From the NCBI GenBank assembly GCA_016840085.1, contig JAEOTA010000054.1, positions 32,001 to 96,000 of the forward strand: a stretch of 64,000 nucleotides of DNA. Reading direction: 5' to 3'. The position numbers and the translations under genes are program-made. This document shows positions 46,653-58,592 of this stretch, one piece after another (position 1 is the first letter of the stretch; each line of letters starts with the position of its first letter). The DNA comes from Promethearchaeota archaeon. Its GTDB lineage: Archaea; Asgardarchaeota; Lokiarchaeia; Sigyniarchaeales; SOKP01. The notes beneath the pieces were generated by a model, which did not search any database, had not been told where the DNA came from, and worked only from the letters and a program-made list of their open reading frames with translations.

Positions 46653-49031
46653 TTATGTCTGTTTTTTCTCAAAATTTTTAATAATCGAATCTAGTAGATT
46701 TCTTATCTTAATGTTATTTGGGATAAGTTCCAATTGTTCTGTATATAATGGATAATTTTTATGTAAAATATTTAATAACTCAAGCCAAGACTTCTGATTT
46801 TCCGTTTGATTCGGAATGTCTTTTTTTAATTGAAAAATAATCCTCTTTTCTTTCTTAGATTTTATAGCTCTTAGGAAATTTTTGGCAACTAAAATTCTAA
46901 AAGCAAAATATTCTTCAGGTCTAAAATGAGCTAATGAATAATTCATACTATCATCTGAAAACGGCAAAATTTTAATCCTTTTATCCTCAGGTTCCTCGGG
47001 ATTTTCAATTAACGTAAATTCTAAGTCTCTTTTACTAATTTCGTCTAAAATAAAATATAATTCTCCTAAAGGTATTTTAGTACTGCGTTCTAGCTGATTG
47101 ATAATTTTTGAAACGGGGATATAAAACTCAGGATTTCTATCAGGAGTTTCTATTCTATACATATATTCTTTTTTTACATTTTCTATAATTTGATTTTTTA
47201 GATCTTCTGATAATATTGCTTTAAAAGTCTCAGTTACATGAGCTTCCTCTTTAATTTTTTCAACTTTTTTTTCATCAATATGCTTTTTTCTATAATTTGT
47301 TGTAAGGGATTCAATAAATCTATCTGAAGCTTTATCTGATTCAGCTTTAGTTTTTAATCTACTTACCCCACTCGCTGTTGCAGTAGCTGTTTTGAATAAT
47401 CTTTCTTGTAAATATTTCTTTGCTTTTTGTTCTGCTACTTCTTTTTTCTCAAATCGTTCCGTGACGGAAGTAAAATCGATGAATTTTGTCGATTTACCTA
47501 ATTCATCTCTCCTTTGTGTTATAAGAATATCCATATCTTTTTCAGCTAATTGCCTTATCATAGAATAGACATTTGCTTTTGATAACTGAGTCGCTTTAAT
47601 CAATTCACGCTCAAGAATCTCAATTGGAAATGCTTCTCCTCTTCTTATATATTCACTTCTAATAATTATATAGATTTTTTCCATACTTTTCTCTTCTTCG
47701 TTGACAGTTTCTTTTTGCATCCTCATAAACATCGAAGTTTCATGAGGTTTGAGATAATAAACTAATATTGTCAAACCTAAGAAACAAATAATTAAAACAG
47801 ATATGATATATTTATCAAATGATAATATTTCTCCTACAAAAGTTAGAGTTTGATTAGGGATTTCAGCGATATTAATATATCGAGTAAAAGTTTGAGCAAG
47901 TACACTAGCTAAAAGAAATAAAATTAATCCATCTTTTTTAAAGATCAATATTTGCCAACCTAATGATTGTCCTGTTTTTTTAACTATACGATATAAGAAA
48001 AACATAGAAATTAAAAATTCAAAAAGAAATATGAATGAAAATATTGACTCTGTTGCCCCAACTGTTGCTTTGAAAGATGTTATGGTTTCTGGACGCATAA
48101 CAAGAAAGATTGTCATTTGTAATATTTGAAAGAAAAATATAAAGAATACGATTAGTGAGAAAGTAAAATTATCGAAAGAACCAGCTCTTTTTGTTTCAGC
48201 TCGTCTTCTGGTAAAAACTATTTCAAAAATAATAAATAAAAGAGTTGCTACCAAACTCAAATAAATTAAAGGCATAACAAGGCGCATTTCTGTTTCATAT
48301 ACTTTTACAGCATTTTCAGGGTCAAAATGGCTAAAAAAATCTAGAGATAAAAATACTAAGAAGCTCCTGTAAAATAATGAAATTATAACTAGAATACCTA
48401 AAATAACAAAAGGGGTAATTAATACCCCTGCATATCTAGGAATAGAATATTTTTTAATGAATCTGGCTTCTATTTTAGTAGAAAATTTACGCGAATAAAC
48501 ATAAAACCTACTACTTAAAAGGAATAGCCATATCATTGCTAATAACAATAAATAGGATGTAAAATTAATACTCGTACCTATATATAAAAACATGAAGTAG
48601 AGACTAACTATTAATCCAACATATAAGATAAATTGCTTGATTGCAGATTTTTCTTCAAAAATAAAAAGCCTTACTTTATCAATACTAAATATCACTGATA
48701 AAATTAAGAAAAAAGCTATAATTGTGTTTGAAAACGCAAAAGGATTTCCAAACATCAAGATTGCGGTTAATGGATTTCTTGAAATATTAATTTCTAAAAT
48801 TAACAGGAATGCATATAAAATAAAAATACCATATAAACCAATAAATTTCTTTTTAAATGAGTAAAATTTAGGCTCTTGCCCTTCAAGGTACACTTCTTGA
48901 TGAACTATTTTATCATAAACATATTTCAACTTTTTTTTTACATTTGAGAAAAATCCGCCTATTTTTGTATTTAGTCTCGAAAAAAAGCTGATTTTCCTAT
49001 GTTTAATCTCTGGCGATTCCTTTTTAGACAT
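46653..49031 (-). CDS. Large hypothetical membrane protein: about 11-TM N-terminal region plus cytoplasmic winged-helix-like repeats
   Basis: Hydrophobic segments through about aa 425, then two similar helical units (IRSEYIRR...LERELIKAT and VKKEYMYR...INQLERST). Confidence 0.75.
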   Translation of the reverse strand: MSKKESPEIKHRKISFFSRLNTKIGGFFSNVKKKLKYVYDKIVHQEVYLEGQEPKFYSFKKKFIGLYGIFILYAFLLILEINISRNPLTAILMFGNPFAFSNTIIAFFLILSVIFSIDKVRLFIFEEKSAIKQFILYVGLIVSLYFMFLYIGTSINFTSYLLLLAMIWLFLLSSRFYVYSRKFSTKIEARFIKKYSIPRYAGVLITPFVILGILVIISLFYRSFLVFLSLDFFSHFDPENAVKVYETEMRLVMPLIYLSLVATLLFIIFEIVFTRRRAETKRAGSFDNFTFSLIVFFIFFFQILQMTIFLVMRPETITSFKATVGATESIFSFIFLFEFLISMFFLYRIVKKTGQSLGWQILIFKKDGLILFLLASVLAQTFTRYINIAEIPNQTLTFVGEILSFDKYIISVLIICFLGLTILVYYLKPHETSMFMRMQKETVNEEEKSMEKIYIIIRSEYIRRGEAFPIEILERELIKATQLSKANVYSMIRQLAEKDMDILITQRRDELGKSTKFIDFTSVTERFEKKEVAEQKAKKYLQERLFKTATATASGVSRLKTKAESDKASDRFIESLTTNYRKKHIDEKKVEKIKEEAHVTETFKAILSEDLKNQIIENVKKEYMYRIETPDRNPEFYIPVSKIINQLERSTKIPLGELYFILDEISKRDLEFTLIENPEEPEDKRIKILPFSDDSMNYSLAHFRPEEYFAFRILVAKNFLRAIKSKKEKRIIFQLKKDIPNQTENQKSWLELLNILHKNYPLYTEQLELIPNNIKIRNLLDSIIKNFEKKQT

Positions 49032-51315: not shown

Positions 51316-52701
51316 TTAAGTTATATTACGGAAATCTGTAATAATTTTTTGAAGTTTTTCAAGTAAATTATTAATTTCTGTGTAAGCTTCTCTAAGTGGC
51401 TGTAGTTCTAAGCTTATTTTTTCAATTTTTTCATTAAAATTATTCTCAAGTGGTGAAATTGATTTTTTAAGTCCTTTCTCTAAATTTTGAATAATAGATT
51501 TTAGATCATTATCAGTTGAAGAGATAGATGATTCCAATTTATTAACTAATTCTTCCATATTCGAGTTTTGTAGGAGGTTATCTGTTATTTTGTCTGTGAT
51601 TGTTTTATTTAAATTATCCATATCAGTTTTAAGATATTTTATGTTATCATCAACATTATTAGTCAATTCACAAATAAGATTCTCCTTGGCTTGAGCTGTA
51701 TCGATTATTAATTGCTTTTGTATTTCAACTGGACCCTCTACATATTTTGAGACACCTCCTTTAAAATCGCCTACAATATTATCCATATTTCTGTTAAACC
51801 ATTCATCTGCTCTTAAAAAACCAGAAGATATCGATTCTTTTAATTTATTTACAGATTCTACCATTAATTCATTTCCGTTCGAAGAACCTTTATCTATATC
51901 ATTAATCCACTTACTAATTTGAGATTTCAATGAGTTCATAAGAATTTCAGAGAACTTTCCGAATCCGTTTTGAAAACTTGAAATTGCAGCTGATACTTCT
52001 GAGTATTTTTCTAATTCATCTCCTCCTAATAAACCTTTCTCAGCCACTGGAATTTCCTGAAGATCTTCTGTAATTACTTCTTTCATTTCCTTTATTTCTT
52101 TAATTAAAATAGGATTTCTTTTATGAAAATCTTCCATAAATTTTTGAACCCATTTAAAATATTCTAATGTCGCAGGTATCTCAACTTCATAAGCAACTTC
52201 ATGATACTTATCAGGAATTTTATAGTCATCTAACCTATAAATTTCAAATCCAAGATTTCCATCTTTACTCATTAAGGTATGATCGAATACTATTCCAAAA
52301 CCATATGGGGCTTTTTCATTTTGAAAGTATTGTAGATTTCTTTTATCGCTTTCGCTTAAATATAATCCCCATGAAGGATGCGAGTGGTAGTATCCTATAA
52401 TTTCTCCAGAATACTGCTTTCCCAAATTGGAAAACAATTCATAGTCTTCTCTGTCAAATCCTACTTCTACAGTACCACCGTGAGTTACAGGCACTGCATT
52501 TTCCATAATAACCTTATCTTCATTTGGATCATAATTACCAATACAAATTCCCATTACTTCTTTACTTTTTTCTATTGCTTTATGGCCAAATCGTAGGACA
52601 TGGCTTATCATGTTTCGAAGTGCTTCTTTTGTTATGAAAATTTTACCCTTTTCTGAAATTTTATGTTCATTAAGCGTATCATTTAAATCATTGTTTGACA
52701 T
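51316..52701 (-). CDS. JAMM/MPN+ metalloprotease (Rpn11/CSN5-like) with a long C-terminal coiled coil
   Basis: EVMGICIG; GYYHSHPSWGLYLSESD is an intact E..HxHx7SxxD. Confidence 0.88.
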   Translation of the reverse strand: MSNNDLNDTLNEHKISEKGKIFITKEALRNMISHVLRFGHKAIEKSKEVMGICIGNYDPNEDKVIMENAVPVTHGGTVEVGFDREDYELFSNLGKQYSGEIIGYYHSHPSWGLYLSESDKRNLQYFQNEKAPYGFGIVFDHTLMSKDGNLGFEIYRLDDYKIPDKYHEVAYEVEIPATLEYFKWVQKFMEDFHKRNPILIKEIKEMKEVITEDLQEIPVAEKGLLGGDELEKYSEVSAAISSFQNGFGKFSEILMNSLKSQISKWINDIDKGSSNGNELMVESVNKLKESISSGFLRADEWFNRNMDNIVGDFKGGVSKYVEGPVEIQKQLIIDTAQAKENLICELTNNVDDNIKYLKTDMDNLNKTITDKITDNLLQNSNMEELVNKLESSISSTDNDLKSIIQNLEKGLKKSISPLENNFNEKIEKISLELQPLREAYTEINNLLEKLQKIITDFRNIT

Positions 52702-52705
52702 TTTC

Positions 52706-54193
52706 TTATTGTCCTCCTTCCAATTTTTTAAGTTTTTTTAAGAGATTTTCATTTTCAGTCCTTAAATCTTTTATATTCTTTTGAAGGCTCTTATTTTCTG
52801 TTTCTAATGTATCTATTTTATTCTTTATAGGATTCTTTGAACTTTCTAATACTATTATAGCTGCTTTTAAATCTGATAAAAAACTTTTTGTTTCTTTATT
52901 TAAATTTATGAAATTCCCAACAATTTTATTAGTATTTTTGACAACTTTAGCTAATAATTCCTCTTGAAGAGAATTAATTTTATCTAGCGTTATATTTTCA
53001 ATTGTTCTAATTTTCTCAGAATTTTTATCCAATGTGGCAAATTGATTTTTTAGTTTTTCAGAAAGTAATGATGTTTTCGTTCCTATTTTTGCGAATTGAT
53101 CTGTTGTTTGTTCAAAAGAACTCAACATTTGACCTAAAGAGTTTCTTAATTTTGTTTCAAGTAAATCATTCAATTGATCCTTAAGTTCTAAAATAAATTG
53201 ATTAAATTGCTCTTTAAGTTTTTCTTGATCTTCTCCAAATTCTTCAAATTTATCATCAATATACATATCAAGTTCATTTAATTTATCTTTGAACGAAAAT
53301 TTAAGTTCCTTTTGTAAATTTGAAATCCCTTTATTAATATTTTCTTTTATTGTAAGCAAATTAATTCTCATCTGAAAATTATTTTCGACAATATTCTTTA
53401 TTATATCTTTACTCCACGAATTTAGAAATGAAATCAATGGGTTAATTGATAGATCAATAAATTTAGACAGTCCGTTATGGATTGCTGAGATTATTTCTTC
53501 TACATTAAGTTCTGGTCTTTTAGCTCTAAGTTGTTCCTCACTTGGAAAGGCAATATCTCCAAATAGATCTGGCATCTCATTAATTTCTAAAATAGGAGGT
53601 TCTTTAGTATGTATACTGCCAATTAAATCCATCAATTTCAAATAATATTCTTTATCATCAGGAGGTTCTACTATTGTTTTAACTTCATAATAACCCTCTG
53701 AGGGTTTTGAAGGATTATTTAATCTAAATGTGCGAAATCCTAAATCTCCTGGTTTTTCTAAATAAGTATGATCAAATACTATCCCTATTCCACTAGGATT
53801 GAAGTCAGTTTGCCACCCAAGCTGATTCTTTACATCTGTGCTTGAAAAAAATATATCTAAGCCCGGATGGCTGTGGAACCATCCACAACTAAATAACCCT
53901 TTATCAATATATTCGTTGTCAACCATAGAAAATGTTACGTAATCTTCTGGAGCAAAATCAACTTCAATTGACCCTCCATGGGAGATGGGAACAGCATCTT
54001 CTATTATAACATCTCTTATTCCTTTTTTATCAGGTTCACCCTCTTCTAATCTCCCGATCAGTATTCCCATTACTTCACGATACTGCCCTCGCTCTATAAC
54101 TTTATTTCCAAATCTTAGCACATGAATAAGCATTTTATAATATGCATTTGGTTTGATAATAACAACCTTTTCATCAGAAGTCAATTTAATCAC
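52706..54193 (-). CDS. JAMM/MPN+ metalloprotease with a long C-terminal coiled coil
   Basis: EVMGILIG; GWFHSHPGLDIFFSSTD intact. Confidence 0.88.
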   Translation of the reverse strand: MIKLTSDEKVVIIKPNAYYKMLIHVLRFGNKVIERGQYREVMGILIGRLEEGEPDKKGIRDVIIEDAVPISHGGSIEVDFAPEDYVTFSMVDNEYIDKGLFSCGWFHSHPGLDIFFSSTDVKNQLGWQTDFNPSGIGIVFDHTYLEKPGDLGFRTFRLNNPSKPSEGYYEVKTIVEPPDDKEYYLKLMDLIGSIHTKEPPILEINEMPDLFGDIAFPSEEQLRAKRPELNVEEIISAIHNGLSKFIDLSINPLISFLNSWSKDIIKNIVENNFQMRINLLTIKENINKGISNLQKELKFSFKDKLNELDMYIDDKFEEFGEDQEKLKEQFNQFILELKDQLNDLLETKLRNSLGQMLSSFEQTTDQFAKIGTKTSLLSEKLKNQFATLDKNSEKIRTIENITLDKINSLQEELLAKVVKNTNKIVGNFINLNKETKSFLSDLKAAIIVLESSKNPIKNKIDTLETENKSLQKNIKDLRTENENLLKKLKKLEGGQ

Positions 54194-54392
54194 GTTTTAT
54201 AAAAGATTGAGATATAGTTTGTTAATGATATTATATATGATTTTATTGATTTTAAATATTTGAATAAAAAGTTTGAAATTTATTTTTTAATTTTGGCAAT
54301 TATATAATTTTCTAATCCAAATGAAATTCAAACTAATATCAAATTTCTCTAACTAGAATTAAAGTGAATAAGTAGAACCATTAAAAATATAT

Positions 54393-55046
54393 TTAATCAT
54401 GTTCGGGCAGAGGTCTTCCGCAGAAAGGGCAGAATCTAAATCCTAAGTCTTTACCACAAAAAGGGCAAAATTCCTTCTCTGAGCCTGCTTGAACTTGTGT
54501 TTCACCACCAACTTTTGGGATTGAAGGCAATTCTCGGGATGTTCTTATCGTTGTAGCTGATGAAGCTTGAGGTTGTTCACTTCTCGCAGCTACCCTCTCT
54601 TTAAAGGCTTGCCTTTGTTCTTTATCAATTTCTTGTTGGGACTTTATACTATCTCCTTTTACCCAACCTTGAACTTTTGGTCTCTTTAATTCACTTTCAG
54701 GAACTTTTTCTAATTCAATATCTCTAGTTTCTGATACAGGAGCCATCATTTTCCTTTGTTCTTTTTTCTGAATTGCTTGTTTAACTAAAGCTTGGGTTGT
54801 TTTCATTACTTGATGTGGATTTATATTGGGAATTGCAACAGTCCTTAATACCCACCCTACTACTAAATTTTGATTCGGAAAATTACCTTCAACATCCTCA
54901 TCCTTAAAAACATAGGAATCGATTATATCTCTCCCTTTTAACAAGCGAACTGCCCATTTCTCATTGATAAGTCCTAGTTGAAGCCTATAGCTAGTCCCAG
55001 GCACGCCAAGCTGACTTGTCAATGGCTCAAATCCTCTTTCTGTCAA
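54393..55046 (-). CDS. Hypothetical protein with a C-terminal double zinc ribbon
   Basis: FCPFCGKDLGFRFCPFCG; compact N-terminal domain and low-complexity linker. Confidence 0.75.
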   Translation of the reverse strand: MTERGFEPLTSQLGVPGTSYRLQLGLINEKWAVRLLKGRDIIDSYVFKDEDVEGNFPNQNLVVGWVLRTVAIPNINPHQVMKTTQALVKQAIQKKEQRKMMAPVSETRDIELEKVPESELKRPKVQGWVKGDSIKSQQEIDKEQRQAFKERVAARSEQPQASSATTIRTSRELPSIPKVGGETQVQAGSEKEFCPFCGKDLGFRFCPFCGRPLPEHD

Positions 55047-55300
55047 TATCCTTCACTTTTTAGATATTAATATTTTGAATTTAGTAATATTATAATGGTG
55101 GTTTTCGAATTTAAATTATTATTTGTTTTATATTTTTTAACATTAAAAATTTTATCTGTTAACCTTCTTCTGAACACATGAGAATTTGTATCTAAATTTT
55201 AAAAACCATTATCTAATAAAAAAGACATAAATAGAAAAATTTGTATTAATTTGTAAAGCACCATTTAGATATTAAATTAAAAAAAAAGATCTAGTATAAG

Positions 55301-56257
55301 ATGACTGTAATTATTCCAAAAAAGGCATATAAAGCTATTGTAGCAGCCTCAGTGCGGTTCGCTAATGCAAGAATTCCTAAAGATGATTGGCTTGAAGTAA
55401 GTGGTATTTTTACAGGTAGAAATGAGGGAGATGATGTTATCATTACTGAAGTATGCCCTATCATGCATCAAGAATTAGATAAAAATGCCATTATTGATCA
55501 ATATAAGTGGAGCGATGAAGATTATGAAGCTTTATATATAATTGATGAACAAGCCTTTTCAAGAGATCCACTGGAATTTGTAGTTGGTTGGTGGCATTCA
55601 CACCCTGGATTTAAAGTCATGATGTCTCATATCGATATTCGTACTACCTTATCTTATCAACAAAATAATCCTTTAGCAATTTCTCTTGTTTTTAATCCTC
55701 AAAGATTAGTTCGCCAAATTGAAGTTGCAGAGAAAAAAGGAGATCCAGATAAGCAACTTAGGAATGATCCTGGGTTTAAAATATTTAGATTGGATGACAC
55801 AAGTCGCGGTATAGAAGCTTCATATCATACAGTAGATTATCGTATAGAAGATTATGACAGTATGGAACAATTGGTATCTTTCACACAAAAATTCATAGTG
55901 GATGTTACTAATTTATTTCCAAATGAAAAAATACCTCAAACTTATGAACAGATTATTGATGATAAAGTAAACCAATTAAGCTCATTAATATTAGGGACAG
56001 AAGAGTATTTAACCACTCTCTCTAGAAGTGGAGAAACTCATAGAATTCCAGAAGTATTACAGAATCAAACTCAAGAAATTCTTAAATTTGTAGATCAAAC
56101 TAATAAAAAAATCGAAGAAATTAAGGAACTTATGGATTTCTTGGAATATAAAGAAAAAGAAATAGTTATCTCCCAAGTAGAAACCATTTTATCAAAATGG
56201 TATGATGCAATTAAAGGATTAGATAAAAGATTGAAGGAATTATCTAAGAAATTTTAA
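55301..56257 (+). CDS. JAMM/MPN+ metalloprotease with a C-terminal helical bundle
   Basis: LEVSGIFTG; VVGWWHSHPGFKVMMSHID intact. Confidence 0.88.
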   Translation: MTVIIPKKAYKAIVAASVRFANARIPKDDWLEVSGIFTGRNEGDDVIITEVCPIMHQELDKNAIIDQYKWSDEDYEALYIIDEQAFSRDPLEFVVGWWHSHPGFKVMMSHIDIRTTLSYQQNNPLAISLVFNPQRLVRQIEVAEKKGDPDKQLRNDPGFKIFRLDDTSRGIEASYHTVDYRIEDYDSMEQLVSFTQKFIVDVTNLFPNEKIPQTYEQIIDDKVNQLSSLILGTEEYLTTLSRSGETHRIPEVLQNQTQEILKFVDQTNKKIEEIKELMDFLEYKEKEIVISQVETILSKWYDAIKGLDKRLKELSKKF

Positions 56258-56384
56258 ATTCCATAATAATTTTAATCTTATTTTTAATTTTGATATATTT
56301 TTATTTGATTACACTTTTCTTTGATTAAGTATACGTTTATTTTTAAAATAAATATCGGAGTATTTTTGCAATACAGTCATTATC

Positions 56385-58592
56385 ATGAAAAAGATTAATT
56401 TTCCCTATACCGCAATCCTTGGACAAGATAAAATGAAGATGGGGTTAGTATTGAATGTTATTGACCCTCAGATAGGAGGCGTTTTGCTTACAGGCCATCA
56501 AGGCACGGGAAAAAGCACAGCTGTAAGAAGTCTCGTCGAATTGATGCCACAAATTGAGGTTATTAAGGGATGTGAATTCTCATGTGATCCTAATTCAGAT
56601 ATAGATGATTTATGTGAGAATTGTATAGAAAAAAAAGGAAAAGAGAAAATTGAAACTGAATTCAGGGATATGTGGTTAGTCAATTTGCCACTAGGTGTCA
56701 CTGAAGATATGGTTTGTGGATCTTTATCTATTGATAAAGTGCTTACTGAGGGAATAAGAGCTTTACATCCCGGATTATTAGCAAAAGCAAACCGAGGTAT
56801 TTTATATGTAGATGAAATAAATTTACTTCAAGATCATATTGTTGACGTATTATTAGATTCTGCTGCTTCAGGAGTTAATATAATAGAAAGAGAAGGAATT
56901 TCTGTGTCCCATCCCTCTAGATTTGTTCTTGTGGGAAGTATGAATCCCGAAGAAGGGGATTTAAGGCCACAAATAGCGGATCGCCTAGGTTTAGAGGTTA
57001 AGATAAAAGCACCTCGCGACTCAGAATTACGTGCTGAAATAACTAGGAGAGTAATCAGTTTTGATGATAACCCAAAAGAATTTATTAAAAATTTTGAAGA
57101 GGAACAAGAAAAATTGAGACAAAAGATTATTAATGCTCGAAAAATCCTAAAAGAAGTCCAAATTCCAAGTTCAGTTTATGAATTTGTGTCTAGAATTGTA
57201 AGTGAGTTAGAAATCTTTTCTCAAAGAGCAGATATTACCTTTATTAGATGTGCTAGAGCCCATGCTGCTCTTAATGCTCGAATAGTTATGAATGAAGAGG
57301 ATTTAAATGTCGCAATGGATTTGGTATTTGAACATAGGATTCAATCTCTTCACTATGAAATGACACCAAAAGAAATTAAAGCAAAAATCGCTGAGGTCTA
57401 TGGGAAAATAAGAGAAGCATATGAGAATACAAAAGTTCTTCGTCCTAATAAAGAGACAGAAGGTCCTTTAAAACATTCAGACGAACCCCAAAAAGAATTT
57501 AAACGCCAATCAGTTGATCCCGACAAAGTAGATATTCCAGAGTCAAAAGAACAGAAATTACCTCCCCCAAAATACCCTGATAATAGAAAGAGAAATCCTA
57601 AACCCGCTGGAGGATGGAAAGTAAAAAATATTCCATATGCGGAAGATGATTTTAAATTTTTTGAAGTAAAAAATGGAGTATCACCCTTCATCTATAAAAT
57701 GGAAAAAAAGATGACCTCAATCTTAGATAATATTAGAAAAGATCGAAAAATTTCTGATTATGGGGGGAGAGGTATAGGTCGCAGAATTAAAGTCTCCTCC
57801 TCTCAAAAAGGTAGATATATTTCTTATAGAACACCAATACGTGAGCAACCCAAAAGAATCGCTTTAGATGCGACTATCAGGAATTATCTAAAAAATATAG
57901 TATATAATAAGACTGAAATTGATTTTCCTATTCATTTTAATAAATATGATTTAATGGATAAAATCTACGAATATCGAGCTCCATTAGCTCTTTTCTTTGT
58001 TCTCGATAGTTCCGCATCAATGTATTATGTACTAAAACAAATGACAGATGTAATACTTTCTTTACATCGTGAAGGATACAGAAAACGAGATAAAATAGCA
58101 TTAATAATTTTTCGTGGTAAAAATGCAATCGTATTACAGAAACCGACTGTTAATTTTAAGATGGCTGTTAATAAATTGAAAAAAATCGAGGGTAAGTCAT
58201 ATACTCCAATGGCTGCAGCATTAAAAAAGGTATCAGAGCTAATAAAAGTTGAAAAATTGAAGGATAGAAACATTATACCTATTGTTTTTGTATGTAGTGA
58301 TTGTGGAGCGAACATATCAGTTAAATATCCTAATTTGATCGCCCAGACAGAAAGCGACTATATTTTAATTACAAATGAATTAAAAGAACTGACTAAAAAG
58401 ATAAATAAACAGAAAATACATCTAGTGGTTTTGGAGCCTAAGAAATCCTATGCAACACACGCGCTTGGTGTGCATACTTATTCTGCAGATCAAATTAAAA
58501 AGAATTTTAAGAAATATGCCAATGGTCAGATTTACAAGTTCAACAAATATGATCCTAACTCATTAATTTTAGAATTGAAGAAAATACTTTAA
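56385..58592 (+). CDS. ChlI/ChlD-like (Mg/Co chelatase family) AAA+ ATPase fused to a vWA domain
   Basis: FPYTAILGQ, GHQGTGKST, TEDMVCGS, PGLLAKANRGILYVDEINLL, SMNPEEG, Pro-rich linker, MIDAS DSSASM. Confidence 0.9.
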   Translation: MKKINFPYTAILGQDKMKMGLVLNVIDPQIGGVLLTGHQGTGKSTAVRSLVELMPQIEVIKGCEFSCDPNSDIDDLCENCIEKKGKEKIETEFRDMWLVNLPLGVTEDMVCGSLSIDKVLTEGIRALHPGLLAKANRGILYVDEINLLQDHIVDVLLDSAASGVNIIEREGISVSHPSRFVLVGSMNPEEGDLRPQIADRLGLEVKIKAPRDSELRAEITRRVISFDDNPKEFIKNFEEEQEKLRQKIINARKILKEVQIPSSVYEFVSRIVSELEIFSQRADITFIRCARAHAALNARIVMNEEDLNVAMDLVFEHRIQSLHYEMTPKEIKAKIAEVYGKIREAYENTKVLRPNKETEGPLKHSDEPQKEFKRQSVDPDKVDIPESKEQKLPPPKYPDNRKRNPKPAGGWKVKNIPYAEDDFKFFEVKNGVSPFIYKMEKKMTSILDNIRKDRKISDYGGRGIGRRIKVSSSQKGRYISYRTPIREQPKRIALDATIRNYLKNIVYNKTEIDFPIHFNKYDLMDKIYEYRAPLALFFVLDSSASMYYVLKQMTDVILSLHREGYRKRDKIALIIFRGKNAIVLQKPTVNFKMAVNKLKKIEGKSYTPMAAALKKVSELIKVEKLKDRNIIPIVFVCSDCGANISVKYPNLIAQTESDYILITNELKELTKKINKQKIHLVVLEPKKSYATHALGVHTYSADQIKKNFKKYANGQIYKFNKYDPNSLILELKKIL

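Follow-up and report, generated by a model that had tools for sequence, protein, structure and literature searches.

To our knowledge, the eukaryotic JAMM enzymes (lid, COP9 signalosome, BRISC, eIF3) are all paired with a catalytically dead partner. MPN heterodimer organisation of PCI complexes is not known in archaea (PMC6043591). CsRpn11 of Caldiarchaeum subterraneum (PMC6043591; PDB 6FJU, 6FJV), the best PDB sequence match obtained here (E-value 1e-9 with a single sequence, 1e-20 with a profile), is likewise an archaeal Rpn11-like JAMM, and its crystal dimer is formed through helices H1 and H4, the same helices as predicted below for JB and JA, yet it is monomeric in solution. It further differs from the proteins described here in being short, in its location beside a ubiquitin operon, and in having neither stalk nor paralogous partner. 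The haloarchaeal JAMM1 desampylase shares the JAMM zinc motif, whereas the three JAMM proteins of this study (318–495 aa) are not short stand-alone enzymes and reached 15–23 bits on the NCBIfam model desamp_Halo against a cut-off of 130.

The locus is located in a 64,000-nucleotide stretch of Promethearchaeota DNA (the window), in which the five ORFs listed in a preliminary description were recovered at the coordinates given there (Table 1). Three of these were identified as JAMM genes with a complete motif, as had been claimed: JA, JB and JC passed the Pfam JAB cut-off and carry E..HxH-x7-S-x2-D in an MPN fold, i.e. E48/H106/H108/S116/D119 in JA, E40/H107/H109/S117/D120 in JB, and E32/H99/H101/S109/D112 in JC. 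The eukaryote-like sequence context attributed to all three was complete (EVMG.L.G and GW.HSHPG) only in JB, whereas JA has GYYHSHPS and JC has EVSG, and context of this type is common to Asgard JAMMs in general. The source genome contains eight MPN matches, six of them Rpn11-like, and separate Prok-JAB-type genes. We propose, with a probability of about 0.6, that JB and JA are the two halves of a pseudo-symmetric MPN heterodimer specific to Lokiarchaeia, in which a zinc isopeptidase head would be carried on a two-chain helical stalk. No description of this pair was found in the literature searched, which was mostly without subscription papers.

Table 1. Genes and sequence features of the JAMM locus, with positions in the window.
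Feature	Position	Strand	Description
JA	51316-52701	-	461 aa; JAMM paralogue downstream of JB
JB	52706-54193	-	495 aa; active-type JAMM/MPN+ subunit
JB-JA gap	52702-52718	-	4 nt; GGAGG ribosome-binding-like motif inside end of JB
Zinc-ribbon protein	54393-55046	-	217 aa; conserved; N-terminal domain and C-terminal double zinc ribbon
JC	55301-56257	+	318 aa; separate JAMM orthologue group, MPN+ and C-terminal three-helix bundle
Empty intron site within JC JAMM motif	55612-55613	+	HSHPGF/KVMMS (slash marks the site); insert absent here
AAA-vWA protein	56385-58592	+	735 aa; ChlI/ChlD-type, chelatase-like; syntenic neighbour

JA and JB are paralogues with 31–32% identity, and the common post-MPN segment noticed earlier was confirmed by an in-register alignment extending to about residue 375. 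JB comprises an MPN domain (ca. 8–176), a dimerisation helix (ca. 177–200), and an amphipathic helical stalk of ca. 260 residues with a conserved distal tip (ca. 422–453), the catalytic motif and the Ins-1 region being the most conserved part of the protein. Of the coiled-coil tails assigned previously, those of JA and JB are long amphipathic helices and coiled coils only loosely, with a hydrophobic period of 3.6–3.8 and not 3.5 except in the last ca. 60 residues of JB, whereas JC ends in a three-helix bundle of ca. 110 residues. Pfam matches to BRCC36_C, RPN11_C, CSN5_C or MitMem_reg were absent (E-value up to 0.1), the JB tail matched own-family clusters only in the ESM Atlas, and the single-chain AlphaFold model of JB was poor (pLDDT 52) and weak in the MPN part. 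The reported 4-nt spacing of the two genes was correct; in 51 of 52 relatives the gap ranges from -35 to +57 nt, and together with the GGAGG inside the end of JB this suggests translational coupling from JB to JA.

JB and JA stand side by side at 53 of 54 loci (genus, 29/29; other genera, 17/18; other families, 7/7), and they do so even beyond the family, where none of the other neighbours is retained. Over the same distances the control pair JB-zinc ribbon fell from 27/29 to 12/18 and 0/7, and JA-HTH from 27/29 to 14/18 and 0/6, with TM792-MFS adjacency declining from 22/27 to 3/12. In two genomes (L053, L054) JB-JA was duplicated as a unit, and three single-contig genomes of a sister family showed no such pair. 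The co-conservation expected earlier thus stood for JB-JA; it failed for JC and the AAA-vWA gene, which have differing distributions and are unlinked from JB/JA outside the family. By gene order, JB-JA is the conserved core, and the five genes do not make up a single conserved unit.

Complex prediction, which had been suggested as a check, was positive for JB-JA, with a score of 0.72 against 0.00 for the best of three controls, on a mark that 58 of 80 solved complexes and two of 110 mismatched pairs attained; the score does not separate a heterodimer from a homodimer, may stem from resemblance to MPN dimers already solved, and would also be passed by close cousins of a true partner. The runs shared at least 37% of contacts with a partner pLDDT of at least 61. 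Confident contacts lay in helix 1 of the MPN domain and in the post-MPN helix (JB 15–33 and 175–200, JA 28–43 and 173–199), and no confident JB-JA contacts were predicted in the stalks. JB and JA probably work as a pair.

The catalytic motif was intact in 52 of 53 JB copies, and the lone exception was due to masked bases, so that every readable copy is intact. The JA motif in turn was intact in 30 and degenerate in 25 of 55 copies, with at least six switches between these states on a tree from which the motif columns had been left out, and JA activity may have been regained on some branch. A catalytically dead partner is consequently a feature of 25 of 55 relatives and not of this window, and the earlier view that all MPN subunits are still active fits the motifs of this clade but not the family as a whole. 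Across the genus, the motif residues of the 24 intact JAs hardly varied, and half of the codon pairs for identical residues differed synonymously; by this pattern the JA motif is under purifying selection in the clade, where JB and JA are both probably active. Recent spread of the intact motif by recombination was considered and found unsupported, synonymous divergence being 0.50 in the motif and 0.33–0.36 in its flanks. Motif and selection together suggest zinc isopeptidase activity on a ubiquitin-like substrate.

On the basis of phylogeny, JA and JB were sisters (support 100/98) inside an Asgard clade consisting almost entirely of Lokiarchaeia (100/97) and without Rpn11/CSN5. The MPN tree, of 162 columns and with BRCC36, Abraxas, Rpn8, CSN6, AMSH and JAMM1/2 left out, answers the earlier suggestion of such an analysis against an Rpn11/CSN5 grouping, a joint clade being rejected by the AU test (p-AU 0.021). 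As far as sequences can tell, JA and JB arose by whole-gene tandem duplication inside one Lokiarchaeia order and apart from Rpn11/CSN5, and the supposed pre-eukaryotic state was not supported. Some relatives encode a second, short MPN pair that arose by an independent duplication and in which both members are dead; it was tandem in six of six genomes and directly upstream of JB in three. It is possible, though somewhat less likely than not, that one Asgard order invented obligate MPN heterodimers twice, independently, that living genomes show the complete series of active/active (this window), active/dead and dead/dead pairs, of which eukaryotes retain only end points, and that the two pairs may form a four-MPN complex in some lineages.

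In the proposed heterodimer, the heads are predicted to pack via helix 1 and the helix that follows the MPN core, and JB would cleave after the C-terminal Gly of a ubiquitin-like modifier, either in deconjugation or in precursor trimming. Proteins of E1-like, E2 and ubiquitin-like type are encoded in the source genome, and one of the ubiquitin-like proteins ends in -GGI; because genes for ubiquitin, E1, E2 or E3 are missing from the vicinity of JB/JA, this substrate is one that we infer. JA would be mainly a structural or activating partner, its own catalysis being dispensable in many lineages and still selected in this clade, where the dimer would be MPN+/MPN+, and the conserved stalk tips probably dock the pair on some partner. 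The whole may represent an independent archaeal replay, in which a gene is duplicated, the copies pair, and one partner is let die. That JB and JA are merely co-expressed as separate homo-oligomers or monomers, dead JAs acting as substrate-binding decoys or scaffolds, appears unlikely: a homotypic contact between such paralogues could mimic the prediction, other Lokiarchaeia families have long-tailed relatives that stand alone, with no tandem partner, and CsRpn11 is monomeric in solution (PMC6043591), but this reading is opposed by the near-perfect coupling and duplication of the genes as a pair, and by conserved faces that are specific to each subunit on helix 1 and on the post-MPN helix. Moreover, in dead JAs the substrate-binding Ins-1 region has decayed more rapidly than has the predicted interface (conservation 0.44 in the interface, 0.27 in active site and Ins-1, 0.36 in the rest of the head), a marginal interface signal (permutation p = 0.05) that was absent in intact JAs (p = 0.77). 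Still less probable is a stalk-tethered pair that acts at membranes or on a target other than ubiquitin, with tails binding lipid or an ESCRT-like polymer and JAMM activity secondary. The tail periodicity, weak apolipoprotein-like profile matches to the tails, and the dispensability of catalysis in JA and both short paralogues point that way, but any long amphipathic helix tends to yield such matches, neither transmembrane segments nor an ESCRT gene beside JB/JA were detected, and the conservation of the JB catalytic motif and Ins-1 argues against a secondary activity.

The preliminary description had united JA, JB, JC, the zinc-ribbon protein and the AAA-vWA protein in one multi-subunit deubiquitinase, a pre-eukaryotic state resembling lid, CSN or BRISC, which we regard as highly improbable. 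Synteny of all five genes extends to most members of the genus and to many of the family, and outside the family JC adjoined the zinc-ribbon gene in seven of 12 loci and the AAA-vWA gene in one of 12. However, a five-gene unit drawn from genus-level synteny was rejected, as an entire ca. 20 kb block including Cu-ATPase, MFS and ATP-grasp genes is conserved there. JC is more widely distributed than JB/JA, occurs in single-contig genomes without them, and lies ca. 1.65 Mb from JA in the single-contig genus member G188. TPR-PCI subunits were absent from the genome (98.8% complete), where one marginal PCI match (25 bits) fell on a protein with coiled-coil and winged-helix-like parts, and the tree and AU test are also against this complex. 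The AAA-vWA gene was confirmed as ChlI/D-like: it resembles ChlI/ChlD (BchI/BchD) and cobaltochelatase AAA+-vWA subunits by 586 bits on TIGR02442 and by a vWA domain that significantly matched nothing in the PDB other than the Mg-chelatase 60 kDa subunit, but differs in falling below the curated cut-off and in not adjoining CobN, as its paralogue does. The proposed Rpn10/MERIT40-like role was rejected on the same matches, on the CobN-linked paralogue and on the fusion to a ChlI-type AAA+ domain, unlike the AAA+-free vWA of those proteins; on present sequence evidence the gene is a syntenic neighbour of the JAMM genes.

The zinc-ribbon gene, divergent from JC, is linked to JC and not to JB/JA, and by this linkage the two are a module separate from the pair. 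The AlphaFold model of JC was weak in the MPN part (pLDDT 57), and no MIT or spectrin assignment was made for its C-terminal bundle because the matches were generic (Z up to 10.7) and below the helical-bundle threshold; the N-terminal domain of the zinc-ribbon protein had no usable ESM Atlas match. In relatives, JC is split within the JAMM motif by a 30–32 nt insert of bulge-helix-bulge type, a predicted tRNA-type mini-intron fitting the EndA-type form, with a 4-bp central helix that was 100% paired, two 3-nt bulges, and four pairs with compensatory change. In silico excision gave stop-free ORFs of 315–322 aa in eight of eight cases, and the insert was preferred over frameshift or selenocysteine, which were rejected. 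A search for RNA runs spanning a locus with the insert listed none.

The origin of eukaryotic MPN pairs cannot be watched in eukaryotes, whereas close genomes here carry JA alive or dead, so that JB-JA makes it testable whether pairing precedes loss of catalysis and whether a partner activates the enzyme. The active/active pair of the window would be a natural 'before' state for such a test, as a parallel to eukaryotic MPN+/MPN- dimers of apparently separate origin and not as an ancestor of Rpn11-Rpn8 or CSN5-CSN6. BRCC36 with KIAA0157/Abraxas (BRISC, BRCA1-A; PMC4579573) is alike in MPN pairing around helix 1 followed by bundled helices of both chains, and its combination of active enzyme and pseudo-enzyme is matched in 25 of 55 JA copies. 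JB/JA differ by the missing BRCC36_C match, by stalks of ca. 230–260 residues, by both motifs being intact here, by being recent sisters, and by the absence of an identified BRCC45 or MERIT40 equivalent, and PDB matches to BRCC36 were weaker than to Rpn11/CSN5. With Rpn11-Rpn8, CSN5-CSN6 and eIF3h-eIF3f, the pair shares the MPN fold, the motif, and a predicted dimer that uses helix 1 together with the post-core helix, and JB/JA and the short pair together span the family range of +/+, +/- and -/-, but in the alignment their MPN core is 30–40 residues shorter than that of Rpn11/CSN5, PCI subunits are lacking, and they belong to a separate clade.

The five ORFs of the preliminary description were recovered at their positions (Table), and the minus-strand JAMM pair JB-JA and the divergent third gene, JC, each encoded a complete JAMM motif (Glu and HxH-x7-S-x2-D). 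JB ends 4 nt before the start of JA, and a GGAGG lies inside JB shortly 5' of that start. The post-MPN segment was common to JA and JB, and a whole-gene duplication is indicated as their origin, since the two proteins align in register from the MPN head (protease domain) through this segment into the tail, to approximately residue 375. The motif context described as eukaryote-like was full in JB, but incomplete in JA and JC and widespread among Asgard JAMMs. Likewise, the presumed coiled-coil tails were helical and amphipathic, but with a period of 3.6-3.8 instead of canonical heptads; the C-terminus of JC is a three-helix bundle. In total, eight MPN matches were found in the window's genome.

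Coordinates of the JAMM locus (window positions), of loci in relatives (L) and on other contigs of the window's genome (G000:C)
Feature	Location	Strand	Remark
JA	51316-52701	minus	JAMM gene, Pfam JAB cut-off passed
JB	52706-54193	minus	JAMM gene, Pfam JAB cut-off passed
JC	55301-56257	plus	JAMM gene, Pfam JAB cut-off passed
Zinc-ribbon gene	54393-55046	minus	
AAA-vWA gene	56385-58592	plus	
Membrane protein	46653-49031		792 aa, multi-pass, conserved, no Pfam match
JC insert	L001:8545-8575, L009, L013, L014, L016, L018, L021, L103:1206-1235		site = window 55612/55613
Second JB/JA pair	L053:531-2634, L054:7194-9270		shorter tails, active/dead
Short dead pair	L032:946-2163, L048:5446-6838, L107:2136-3353, L113:3-1100, L114:1489-2776, L115:1492-2798		zinc ligands and stalk lacking
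Ubiquitin-like protein	G000:C25:5895-6149		-AGGI end
Ubiquitin-like proteins	G000:C18:1793-2128, C67:8300-8689		acidic N-termini, -STAG ends
E2 gene segment	G000:C78:~52850-52890 (L126)		in-frame TAA
Paralogue of the zinc-ribbon protein's N-terminal domain	G000:C62:193-699		distant

Relatives used in the comparisons were Promethearchaeota/Lokiarchaeia MAGs. Inside the genus, synteny was uninformative on gene grouping because the entire block of ca. 20 kb, transporters included, is conserved there. With distance, JB and JA remained coupled, being adjacent in 29/29 loci of the genus, 17/18 of other genera and 7/7 of other families, while JB-zinc ribbon and JA-HTH adjacency dropped to 0/7 and 0/6 in other families. 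For 51 of 52 loci, the JB-JA intergenic gap lay between -35 and +57 nt. JC was found in 124/134 family and 12/14 sister-family genomes, including single-contig genomes in which the JB/JA pair was not found; outside the family it lay beside the zinc-ribbon gene in 7/12 loci and beside AAA-vWA in 1/12. Some of the denominators in these adjacency counts take in loci truncated at contig ends. The locus thus resolves into a JB-JA module and a zinc ribbon-JC module, the other genes being neighbours, because adjacency separates with distance, the AAA-vWA protein is chelatase-like, and a PCI subunit set is absent from the window's genome. Of the five genes grouped in the preliminary description, JB-JA and in part zinc ribbon-JC stayed together, but JC and AAA-vWA are separate from JB-JA.

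The zinc-ribbon gene and JC were adjacent, mainly divergent, over two families, and the zinc-ribbon protein has an N-terminal domain of ca. 100 residues without family match. In the family, the gene for the 792-aa membrane protein is typically no more than a few genes downstream of JA; one genome from a further family (L048) also has it close to JB-JA.

The AAA-vWA protein had been taken for an Rpn10/MERIT40-type partner, a role argued against by its ChlI/ChlD-type chelatase-like fusion, by the sole match of its vWA domain (Mg-chelatase 60 kDa subunit), and by a paralogue adjoining CobN. The gene in the window has no CobN neighbour, and its product is 81-96% identical across the genus, much more conserved than the JAMMs.

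At HSHPGF/KVMMS, JC is interrupted by 30-32 nt in 7 of ca. 26 genus loci and in L103; the window's copy is intron-free. The insert forms a 4-bp central helix with two 3-nt bulges and compensatory changes (bulge-helix-bulge type). Left unspliced it yields a truncated protein, and excised a stop-free ORF in 8/8; in 12 genus genomes JC was split or had stops at this point. The insert very probably represents an mRNA intron of tRNA type, as documented in cbf5 and HVO_1309 (PMC10485636). In the E2 gene of the window's genome, a hairpin-like segment of ca. 30 nt near the 3' end, with an in-frame TAA inside it, is possibly another mini-intron. In JC of L044, L046, L050, L105 and L106, from several genera, the motif is one residue longer (HSHPGF-x4-SGFGD).

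The tree comprised JA, JB, JC, other Asgard JAMMs and eukaryotic Rpn11 and CSN5, without BRCC36, Abraxas, Rpn8 and AMSH. JA and JB were sisters (100/98). The clade around them (100/97) also took in JC and single long-tailed proteins, and all its sequences came from Lokiarchaeia except one, which belonged to a different Asgard class. Rpn11/CSN5 fell outside, grouping weakly with short JAMMs of a different Lokiarchaeia order, and constraining JA+JB with them was rejected (p-AU 0.021). This topology places the JA/JB duplication inside one order and does not support the suggested pre-eukaryotic state. Proteins related to this JAMM subfamily (P0148, P0170, P0175, P0180, P0192, P0197) carried fused TPR arrays N- or C-terminal of MPN.

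All MPN subunits had been described as active, which agrees with the intact motifs of JA, JB and JC in the window, but the JA motif was lost in 25/55 copies (intact in 30). Many different substitutions were involved, and a tree from which the motif columns had been left out required six or more changes of state. The JB motif was intact in 52/53, the exception being masked sequence. Over 24 copies of the window's clade the JA motif was almost invariant despite synonymously diverged codons, one Ser being encoded by both TCN and AGY, which argues that selection keeps the motif and that this JA is probably functional. In dead JAs, conservation was 0.27 for active site and Ins-1, 0.44 for the predicted interface and 0.36 for the rest of the head (p=0.05), so that the catalytic region decayed and the interface was retained. 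L053 and L054 carry a second, active/dead pair in addition to a long pair with both subunits intact. Six genomes, the window's not among them, contained a tandem ca. 200-residue pair of head and dimerisation helix, both dead, immediately upstream of JB in three. Its genes were sisters (100/98, support that long branches may inflate), suggestive of a second independent duplication.

Complex prediction gave JB-JA 0.72 (best control 0.00), past a mark reached by 58/80 solved complexes and 2/110 mismatched pairs, a pass that may stem from likeness to solved MPN dimers; the score does not distinguish hetero- from homodimer. Runs agreed in at least 37% of contacts with partner pLDDT of at least 61. 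In both chains, confident contacts fell only in helix 1 and the post-MPN helix, the elements on which the CsRpn11 crystal dimer is built (PMC6043591); helix 1 is also the centre of the BRCC36-KIAA0157 dimer (PMC4579573). The stalks were without confident placement.

JB-JA is read, with a probability of about 0.6, as a pseudo-symmetric heterodimer in which the JB head would act on a ubiquitin-like modifier, cutting behind its C-terminal Gly. JA would stabilise or activate JB, adding a second active site in the window's clade, and the stalks would run in parallel, their conserved tips probably docking on a partner. Gene coupling, duplication and asymmetric loss are sequence results here, dimerisation is a structural prediction, and the substrate, the activating role of JA and the docking are inferences. 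E1-like, E2 and ubiquitin-like proteins are encoded in the window's genome, and the three ubiquitin-like proteins listed are candidate substrates; the one ending -AGGI is a precursor that requires one-residue trimming.

Heterodimers of MPN type were not known in archaea as of 2018 (PMC6043591), and a literature search returned no later description. The window adds an active/active JB-JA state under selection. The analysis further counts the repeated losses of the JA motif, describes the short pair with both members dead, and sets JC and the vWA gene apart. In membership tests JB-JA fell outside the PCI complexes; it is proposed to work like BRCC36-Abraxas or Rpn11-Rpn8.
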